IMG/VR virus record: IMGVR_UViG_2693429662_000016
Location: 1 to 4,137 of that record
From: a virus
Taxonomy: Duplodnaviria > Heunggongvirae > Uroviricota > Caudoviricetes
Length of the DNA: 4,137 bases
Strand: one strand, 5' to 3'
Shown in pieces: positions 3,001 to 4,137 of this stretch. Made by a program: the position numbers. Within the stretch, counting starts at the first letter, position 1. The number at the start of each line of letters is the position of its first letter.

Positions 3001-4137
3001 TATGCTGATTGATTTTGTCCTGGCTGATACAGGCAAAGGGAAAATAACAAAGGCGGATTGATGGGGTGGCTAATGATATCAGATAAACTCATAACGCTGG
3101 TGAAGAGCCTCTGTGTACTTGTCGGCATTTCATTTTTAGTCATGCTGGTTGCCATTTTCTTTTCCACCGCCTGGCGAGTCCTGACGTTATCGGGACTGGT
3201 GGGGTGAAAGAGAGATGAACCGTGTTCTGTGTGTGGTGATTATTGTCATGGCGGTTGGCTGTGGTGCGCTGTGGCTGGCAACAAACCATTACCGTGACAA
3301 CGCGCTCACCTACAAAGCGCAGCGCGATAAAAAAGCCAGAGAGCTGGAACAGGCGAATGCCACCATTACTGACATGCAGGTGCGCCAGCGTGATGTTGCT
3401 GCGCTCGATGCAAAATACTCGAGGGAATTAGCCGATGCGAGAGCTGAAAATGAAACTCTGCGTGCTGATGTTGCCGCTGGTCGTAAGCGCCTGCGGATCA
3501 ACGCCACCTGCTCCGGTACCGTGCGTGAAGCCACCGGCACCTCCGGCGTGGATAATGCAACCGGCCCCCGACTGGCAGACACCGCTGAACGGGATTATTT
3601 CATCCTCAGAGAACGGCTGATGGCAATGCAGAAGCAACTGGAAGGAGCACAGGAATATATCCGTACCCAGTGTATACCGTGATGTTTTGTTATGAAGGTG
3701 TTACTGGTAACGTTAAGGTAATTTAACAAAGAGTCAGTTCCGGACTTTATAGTGTGCTCAGTTCATGGCCAAAAACGATTTCTGTGATAAATATTTTGAA
3801 TATTATTTACAGGTAAATGGAGTGGGGCACATGGATAGAAATATTACAATAGAGAATGAAGTATATGCCCGTATTGTATGGGCAGAGAAGGCAAAAACAC
3901 GGTAATTCCGTGTGTTGCCATGATACCTGATTGGCAGAATAGTTGTTTGGTTTTGAGTATATAGTCAGCGTTTTTTGTTCAGTAATTGCTCCCTCAAAAA
4001 ATAATAAAATAAGGTGATTATTTTTGTTTATTATTTAGTTTTTTTTGTGTGTTGTTTTATTGTTTTTGCGTGGTTTGTTTTTTATTGTTATTTCATTAAG
4101 GGAAGGTAAATTCAGGATGGCAGTCTGTAGATAATCG

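Follow-up and report, generated by a model that had tools for sequence, protein, structure and literature searches.

The pchA, pchB and pchC genes are carried on lambdoid prophages, and full expression of the LEE requires them. In the lysogen, pch is expressed independently and under host control. Reviews name LrhA as a direct activator of pchA and pchB and report that it binds their regulatory DNA directly; the response to LrhA differs between the two genes. Butyrate affects pch via Lrp, NtrC/sigma-S alters pchA transcript levels, a fur mutant contains less PchA protein, and expression of group-1 pch is enhanced by the SOS response. At the level of translation, pchA is blocked by base pairing of its ribosome-binding site with the coding region, and the small RNA DicF opens this structure, as has been reviewed. 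Pch in turn activates ler/LEE1 by displacing or disturbing H-NS complexes.

We analyzed a 4,137-nt window, comprising positions 1 to 4,137 of the IMG/VR virus record IMGVR_UViG_2693429662_000016, the whole of which represents the lysis region of a lambdoid prophage. Its last 455 nucleotides, which follow the Rz stop codon and are referred to here as the block, are the upstream control region of pch, a group-1 PerC homologue, in its pchA-type allele, and thus a well-studied and already known region. The genes of the window and the adjoining start of pch are arranged as follows.

141-407 and 1952-2221, lysozyme gene, split by a deleted IS66-family element
2492-3061, P22-type antirepressor gene (ant)
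3058-3207, 49-aa hydrophobic ORF that overlaps the antirepressor stop codon and ends 8 nt before Rz
3215-3682, plus strand, Rz spanin gene (Pfam Phage_lysis, E 3.2e-49), the last backbone gene before the cassette
3435-3620, Rz1, embedded in Rz (Pfam Rz1, E 1.7e-21)
3683-4137, plus strand, upstream regulatory/leader region of group-1 pch, pchA-type, assigned by sequence match and by the downstream CDS
4138-4142, plus strand, Shine-Dalgarno sequence GGAGG, just past the window end and ahead of the pch ATG (4148)

A preliminary description, made from the window alone, had considered the block to be either a site of moron acquisition or regulatory DNA belonging to a gene acquired horizontally, and had proposed to extend the sequence downstream in search of the next gene. 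In every genome examined, pch starts 11 nt past the window end: at all loci we found a PerC-family CDS of 104 aa with its ATG at window-equivalent position 4148, the product of which matches Pfam family PF06069 (PerC; E 3.8e-44) and is annotated as "PerC family transcriptional regulator." When the Pch protein was compared with viral contigs, 59 of the 80 listed loci encoded an identical protein and the remainder one that was 99% identical. Prophage Sp4 of E. coli O157:H7 Sakai contains the block in the interval 1183680-1184144 on the minus strand, with Rz (ECs_1092) on one side and pchA (ECs_1091) on the other, and 454 of the 455 positions of the block match this intergenic region. Over positions 3653-4137, the window differs from Sakai pchA at a single position, from pchB at 43, and from pchC at 24. 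The pchA, pchB and pchC loci of Sakai Sp4, Sp11 and Sp14 share with the window the sequence itself, the downstream gene, and the position after Rz and before ynfO/cos/terminase; downstream of pch, the loci that we retrieved continue with a stem-loop and its T run, then a ynfO/ylcI-type gene on the minus strand, cos, and the gene for the small terminase subunit. Both the horizontally acquired gene and its regulatory region were thereby found where the preliminary description had supposed them, and we have little doubt about the identity and the regulatory role of 3683-4137 as the pch control region.

The block is common in E. coli. Full-length copies occur in 688 records from 673 of the 5,426 complete E. 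coli genomes, three per genome in the median; 603 of these records contain a copy with at least 99% identity, and in more than 600 E. coli genomes the match to the block is 100%. The high similarity among most copies is partly a matter of recent common ancestry rather than of selection. The exact arrangement of the window was absent from all of the 5,426 complete E. coli genomes in the collection. With an antirepressor gene and the 49-aa ORF ahead of Rz, its lysis context is closer to that of Sp11, which carries pchB, than to that of Sp4, and the split lysozyme gene sets it apart from the Sakai pch prophages. The IS66-family element in the lysozyme gene is internally deleted and spans 1,538 bp (405-1942; locus 396-1951); its ends are GTAAGCGT-type inverted repeats, the direct repeat CTGGCATGG flanks it at 396-404 and 1943-1951, and a 333-aa minus-strand ORF (434-1435) represents TnpB fused to the C-terminal part of TnpC. 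We also observed a perfect 11-bp tandem duplication (GCGCATCTCAC, twice, at 2361-2382) in the intergenic DNA upstream of the antirepressor gene. The 49-aa ORF matches phrog_4906, a family of unknown function, is annotated in Sakai Sp9 and Sp11, and its product may be a small membrane protein belonging to the lysis cassette.

Sakai prophage Sp9 carries the same antirepressor gene, small ORF and Rz but is without pch. Similarity to Sp9 extends over 3212-3672, stops, and returns at window-equivalent positions 4634-4768, inside ynfO, with ~960 bp (upstream region, pch and terminator) standing in place of ~465 bp of unrelated Sp9 DNA. Because this pch-less prophage loses similarity at 3672 and regains it ~960 bp later, the intervening DNA is a moron cassette. 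It consists of the upstream region, pch and a terminator and is placed between Rz and ynfO/cos/terminase in a lambdoid prophage of LEE-positive E. coli. The earlier proposal of a moron acquired after the lysis cassette agrees with the divergence of a related prophage at the Rz stop codon. A stem-loop located 36 nt after the pch stop codon (AAAAAGCGAC-TTTAG-TGGTCGCTTTTT, an 11-bp stem, then a T run) is predicted to be the cassette's own terminator.

The composition of the cassette is likewise unlike that of the flanking phage genes. The GC content of 3683-4137 is 0.33 (A.284, C.101, G.229, T.387), compared to 0.51 for positions 1-3682, 0.553 for Rz and 0.49 for the pch CDS, and these values confirm the drop in GC after the lysis genes that had been noticed by eye. 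An A+T content of 67% across the 455-bp block, next to genes of ~50% GC, is a property shared with H-NS-silenced AT-rich regions such as LEE1/ler, which the pch locus also resembles in having a long control region that integrates many host regulators. This composition makes binding of the block by nucleoid proteins plausible. Taken as a whole, it is very likely that 3683-4137 is the 5' regulatory/leader region of a group-1 pch gene that is carried as a moron cassette.

An example of a phage moron known from comparisons of lambdoid phage genomes is bor of lambda, a lipoprotein gene that lies downstream of Rz and is read from the opposite strand. Like phage morons, pch is an extra gene after Rz that is absent from related phages, has its own terminator, deviates in composition and, according to the literature, is expressed in the lysogen. 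Unlike bor, its cargo is a transcription regulator that is encoded on the late-gene strand and preceded by an unusually long (465-nt) control region. In Sakai, the slot after Rz holds pch in Sp4, Sp11 and Sp14, and the anti-Hha small RNA hnrS (EcOnc10-12) in Sp9, Sp10 and Sp12; the Sp9 counterpart of 3673-4137 corresponds to 5939-6403 of our locus L004. The hnrS product also relieves LEE silencing of the H-NS/Hha type, but the hnrS cassette differs from that of pch in that it specifies a small RNA instead of a protein regulator, is encoded on the other strand, and shows no resemblance to it in sequence. A copy of the Rz-pch block was also found on the 61.6-kb plasmid pOkiPb01680_1 (locus L007, 2033-4935), beside an NleH pseudogene and espS, one of 15 plasmid locations of the block in all. 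The presence of a copy on a plasmid indicates that the cassette also travels outside intact prophages.

The occupation of the same slot by hnrS raises the possibility that the block itself specifies a regulatory RNA, for instance a minus-strand transcript that ends at a hairpin located in the middle of the block.

3890-3920, hairpin GGCAA-CACGG-TAATT-CCGTG-TTGCC, terminator-like on the minus strand, from a terminator scan and folding (z -2.4)

In Sp9, HnrS (EcOnc12) likewise lies directly after Rz on the opposite strand; moreover, the hairpin is followed on the minus strand by T5, its fold is supported by the z-score given above, and a weak promoter-like site is present on the same strand at 4030-4001. 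However, the window and the HnrS region do not align beyond the end of Rz, and a scan of the whole window against Rfam, with E values up to 1, gave no match. The stem at 3890-3920 is not conserved, in that several alleles contain single changes that break it without compensation. Small RNAs from the block had been suggested as something to look for, but no Hfq-bound peak is listed inside the Sakai interval 1183680-1184144, although the same study detected multicopy small RNAs. We therefore consider a regulatory RNA encoded by the block very improbable and favor its reading as the pch control region.

To describe how the control region varies, we compared 86 loci, drawn from IMG/VR prophages and E. 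coli genomes, which yielded 53 distinct versions of the block. Columns were counted on 52 variants, with two versions that have rearranged left ends set aside. The segments and elements that emerged from this alignment are listed below.

3683-3985, distal half of the block, 25% variable columns
3730-3756, conserved segment with the dyad AGTC-N7-GACT (3733-3747), containing the second-longest invariant run (3732-3743)
3782-3812, imperfect AT-rich palindrome CTGTGATAAATATT-TTG-AATATTATTTACAG, at -366 to -336 from the ATG, within the invariant run 3770-3812
3986-4107, plus strand, A-run and T-rich low-complexity tract, hypervariable, 73% variable columns; core 4018-4095, with T8 at 4039-4046 and T6 at 4078-4083
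4108-4137, plus strand, conserved proximal segment that runs into the ribosome-binding site and is part of the pch mRNA leader; 30% variable columns over 4108-4147
first 30 nt of pch, 17% variable columns

The distal half, 3683-3985, is well conserved, and variation is greatest in the T tract; the minority fraction is 0.016 to 0.021 in 4108-4137 versus 0.07 to 0.14 in the tract. The longest invariant run extends over 43 nt (3770-3812), whereas random placement of the variable columns gave a mean longest run of 16.3 (P ~0.0002). The exact 31-mer at 3782-3812 occurs in 113 viral-contig stretches, 80 of which were listed, and in all 75 listed loci of sufficient reach pch follows ~365 nt downstream. 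We regard 3770-3812 as a candidate operator. The symmetry of the palindrome within it is not significant, since 15% of shuffled sequences were equally good in this very AT-rich DNA. Two prophage contigs contain a left-truncated block, which in one (L042) is fused to tRNA genes at ~3757 and in the other (L020) abuts an IS66-family end at ~3700; both retain the invariant 3770-3812 and all downstream sequence. The second conserved element, 3730-3756, is a candidate activator site and possibly the LrhA-dependent region. Such a region was reportedly placed by Honda and coworkers, in 2009, at -418 to -392 from the pchA ATG, an interval that we take to be window positions 3730-3756.

Outside this set of alleles, a search for pch homologues in one genome per species returned only two loci. 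In E. albertii, Pch shows 91% amino acid identity and ~70 nt of upstream sequence is shared (only from ~4078 onward); in another Escherichia species, the corresponding values are 77% and ~26 nt. The unrelated DNA beyond this shared part is once more rich in T immediately ahead of the conserved leader in both cases.

The tract itself had been described as a run of degenerate TTGTTTT(T)ATT repeats at about 4018-4095. Its T-richness is beyond question: 4018-4095 consists of 55 T, 13 G, 8 A and 2 C (70% T; 81% A+T), and no other 78-nt stretch of the window exceeds it in T fraction. Repetition of a unit, the other part of that description, did not hold up. Tandem Repeats Finder returned only weak arrays with 72 to 74% matches (period 21, 3.3 copies, 74% matches; period 25, 2.8 copies), the motif TTGTTTTATT occurs once, and TTGTTT is found at five places in the region and at one in the rest of the window. 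With such weak arrays and a single copy of the motif, "degenerate T-rich low-complexity tract" is the better description. In pchB-type alleles, many G residues of the tract are replaced by A, so that the label "T/G-rich" is specific to the pchA-type allele and the shared property is T-richness. Two short direct repeats occur in the same order (TTTTGAATATTATTTA / TTTTGTTTATTATTTA and AGGTAAATGGAGTGGGGCA / AGGTAAATTCAGGATGGCA), adjoining each other in the first copy (3794-3829) but with the T tract between them in the second (4022-4037 and 4104-4122); they may reflect an old duplication or chance.

The preliminary description had also suggested that the tract might be curved DNA. We found little to favor this idea. 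The T runs start at 4021, 4039, 4055, 4063 and 4078, an irregular spacing that is not phased at ~10.5 bp, and a wedge model gave a moderately raised curvature of 35 to 44 degrees over 3800-4060 without a peak specific to the tract, the window maximum being elsewhere, in the antirepressor (ant) gene.

Whether the tract does anything at all is a fair question, and its variability allows it, and possibly most of the block, to be viewed as a functionless recombination scar that drifts by slippage and a GC-to-AT mutation bias. As the most variable part of the block, the tract suits this view, as do the predominance of G-to-A among substitutions across the whole block and the fact that no specific motif is enriched there. 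One natural pch allele (IMGVR_UViG_2728369393_000011; L069) is without ~41 nt of the tract, equivalent to ~4041-4082, and because about half of the tract is missing from it, the tract is not strictly required for persistence of the cassette. Several findings nevertheless point the other way. The tract is present in relatives, whereas its absence there would have counted against the preliminary description, and across 54 sequences (the 53 variants and the reference) its T fraction is held between 0.55 and 0.72, and between 0.68 and 0.72 in 50 of them, despite heavy turnover. The T-richness of the tract is thus more than chance in one sense: it is kept in what is the most variable sequence of the block. 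The unrelated DNA upstream of pch in E. albertii and the other Escherichia species is T-rich at the same place, conservation in the distal half of the block is higher than expected, and LrhA binds directly to pchA and pchB regulatory DNA according to reviews. A functionless scar is unlikely in our judgment, and we retain the reading of the block as a control region.

T7 replaces T8 at 4039-4046 in 22 of 52 variants, including backgrounds without substitutions, and T5 replaces T6 at 4078-4083, also on backgrounds without substitutions, giving a run-length polymorphism among otherwise identical alleles; these differences could be due to slippage or to homopolymer assembly error. Indels and substitutions in the T tract appear as the main distinction among the pchA, pchB and pchC alleles. 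The pch gene of the allele with the ~41-nt deletion is intact and 99% identical, and this allele could be used as a ready-made deletion variant.

We then considered whether the block might encode a protein. The preliminary description had reported no ORF above ~25 codons on either strand, which proved incorrect: an ATG-initiated ORF of 46 codons is present, together with others of 28 to 44 aa.

3765-3905, plus strand, 46-codon ORF whose in-frame 3' part is a 24-codon ORF (3831-3905)
3878-3964, 28-aa ORF
4014-4109, 31-aa ORF
4045-4134, 29-aa ORF
3595-3729, minus strand, 44-aa ORF that overlaps the Rz end

The 24-codon ORF had been put forward as the only coding candidate, with a plausible ribosome-binding site. 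It does exist and has GGAG 8 nt upstream, but it is part of the 46-codon ORF. A small protein made from either form would amount to a separate moron gene upstream of pch. Consistent with such a gene, the 46-codon frame is intact in six diverged variants, some RefSeq genomes list the ORF as a hypothetical protein, and it matches phrog_2157, a PHROGs phage-protein family of unknown function (E 2.7e-37). Its substitutions tell against selection as a protein, as all of the ~10 found among the variants change an amino acid and none is synonymous, and the pchC-type allele no longer has the GGAG ahead of the internal ATG. The protein search pointed in the same direction: among 5.8 billion proteins, only 11 clusters were related, all at least 83% identical and 25 to 59 aa in length, a spread which indicates that the limits of the frame are not kept. 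No Pfam family was matched, and the Sakai ribosome-profiling supplement has no entry for the block interval, although multicopy regions were possibly excluded there. The 46-codon ORF is probably not a gene, and a small-protein moron in this position seems a very remote prospect. Of the further candidates, ORFs inside the T tract are disrupted by indels in other alleles, and a 5-codon upstream ORF (4118-4135) loses its ATG in the pchC-type allele.

With the block taken as the pch control region, the position of the promoter determines what the T tract would be. Scanning for sigma-70 promoters gave two sites of note.

3915-3943, plus strand, distal sigma-70-like site TTGCCA-17-AATAGT, predicted start ~3950
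4085-4112, plus strand, proximal sigma-70-like site TTGTTA-16-TAAATT, PWM score 9.9, not above shuffles, predicted start ~4119

The distal site is the only 9/12 match on the plus strand and has the top PWM score, 10.6, compared to a mean best score of 11.3 in shuffled sequence; a further best-scoring site lies at 3723-3753. No site in the block scored better than the best in shuffled sequence. The absence of an outstanding consensus promoter fits a weak, activator-dependent promoter, although it does not give its location. If the distal start at ~3950 is used, the T tract is inside a leader of ~200 nt; if the proximal start at ~4119 is used, the tract is promoter-upstream DNA. Consensus scans of the block for Fur, Lrp, IHF, the H-NS high-affinity site, CRP and sigma-54 yielded nothing clearly above chance; the best match to the H-NS site TCGATAAATT was 8/10, which is no more than the chance expectation. 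A sigma-54-like sequence, TGGCAG-N5-TTGTT (3932-3947), was discarded, as its key bases are lost in diverged alleles. In the predicted fold of the leader and coding start, the Shine-Dalgarno sequence pairs with codons 8 to 10, but at a z-score of ~-1 this fold is not more stable than those of shuffled sequences, and no compensatory changes were seen for it among the alleles. The terminator scan found no plus-strand terminator-like site between Rz and pch, and read-through from the late operon into pch is therefore possible.

Together with the literature, these observations suggest how the cassette may work. In the lysogen, pch would be transcribed under host control, with LrhA as a direct input and Lrp with butyrate, NtrC/sigma-S and Fur as others described in the literature. 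The distal half, 3683-3985, and especially 3730-3756 and 3770-3812, would provide activator or operator sites for a promoter that is presumably weak and dependent on an activator. Translation of pch would then be gated by structure between leader and coding region, which DicF opens in published work, and Pch would activate ler/LEE1 by displacement of H-NS, again as described in the literature. On phage induction, late transcription may read into pch; such read-through is suggested by the lack of a plus-strand terminator and agrees with the SOS induction reported for group-1 pch. The T tract at 4018-4095 would serve as a spacer or leader of constrained composition and free sequence, either as AT-rich promoter-upstream DNA, likely a target of H-NS-type silencing, or as the U-rich part of a long 5' leader. 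Each of these two specific roles is possible at best, and we would call neither of them probable. It is also conceivable, though we think it unlikely, that the tract acts as an evolutionary tuning element, in which slippage and turnover shift the spacing or the leader composition between the distal operators and the proximal leader.

Our additions to what is known of pch are modest, namely a per-position conservation map and the slot that holds either pch or hnrS in sibling prophages, and they are nothing new in kind. The conservation map, with its 43-nt invariant segment, dyad and hypervariable T tract, could guide dissection of the promoter. As for the slot, pch and hnrS are two unrelated cargos that both counter H-NS/Hha silencing of the LEE and occupy the same place in sibling prophages. 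Should the T tract indeed be a tuning element, the pch copies within one EHEC genome would differ in expression and in their responses to regulators, of which the known differential response of pchA and pchB to LrhA would be an example. Pch turns on the genes by which enterohaemorrhagic E. coli attaches to the gut, so that the DNA ahead of pch is the place at which EHEC integrates signals from host and gut before it commits to attachment.
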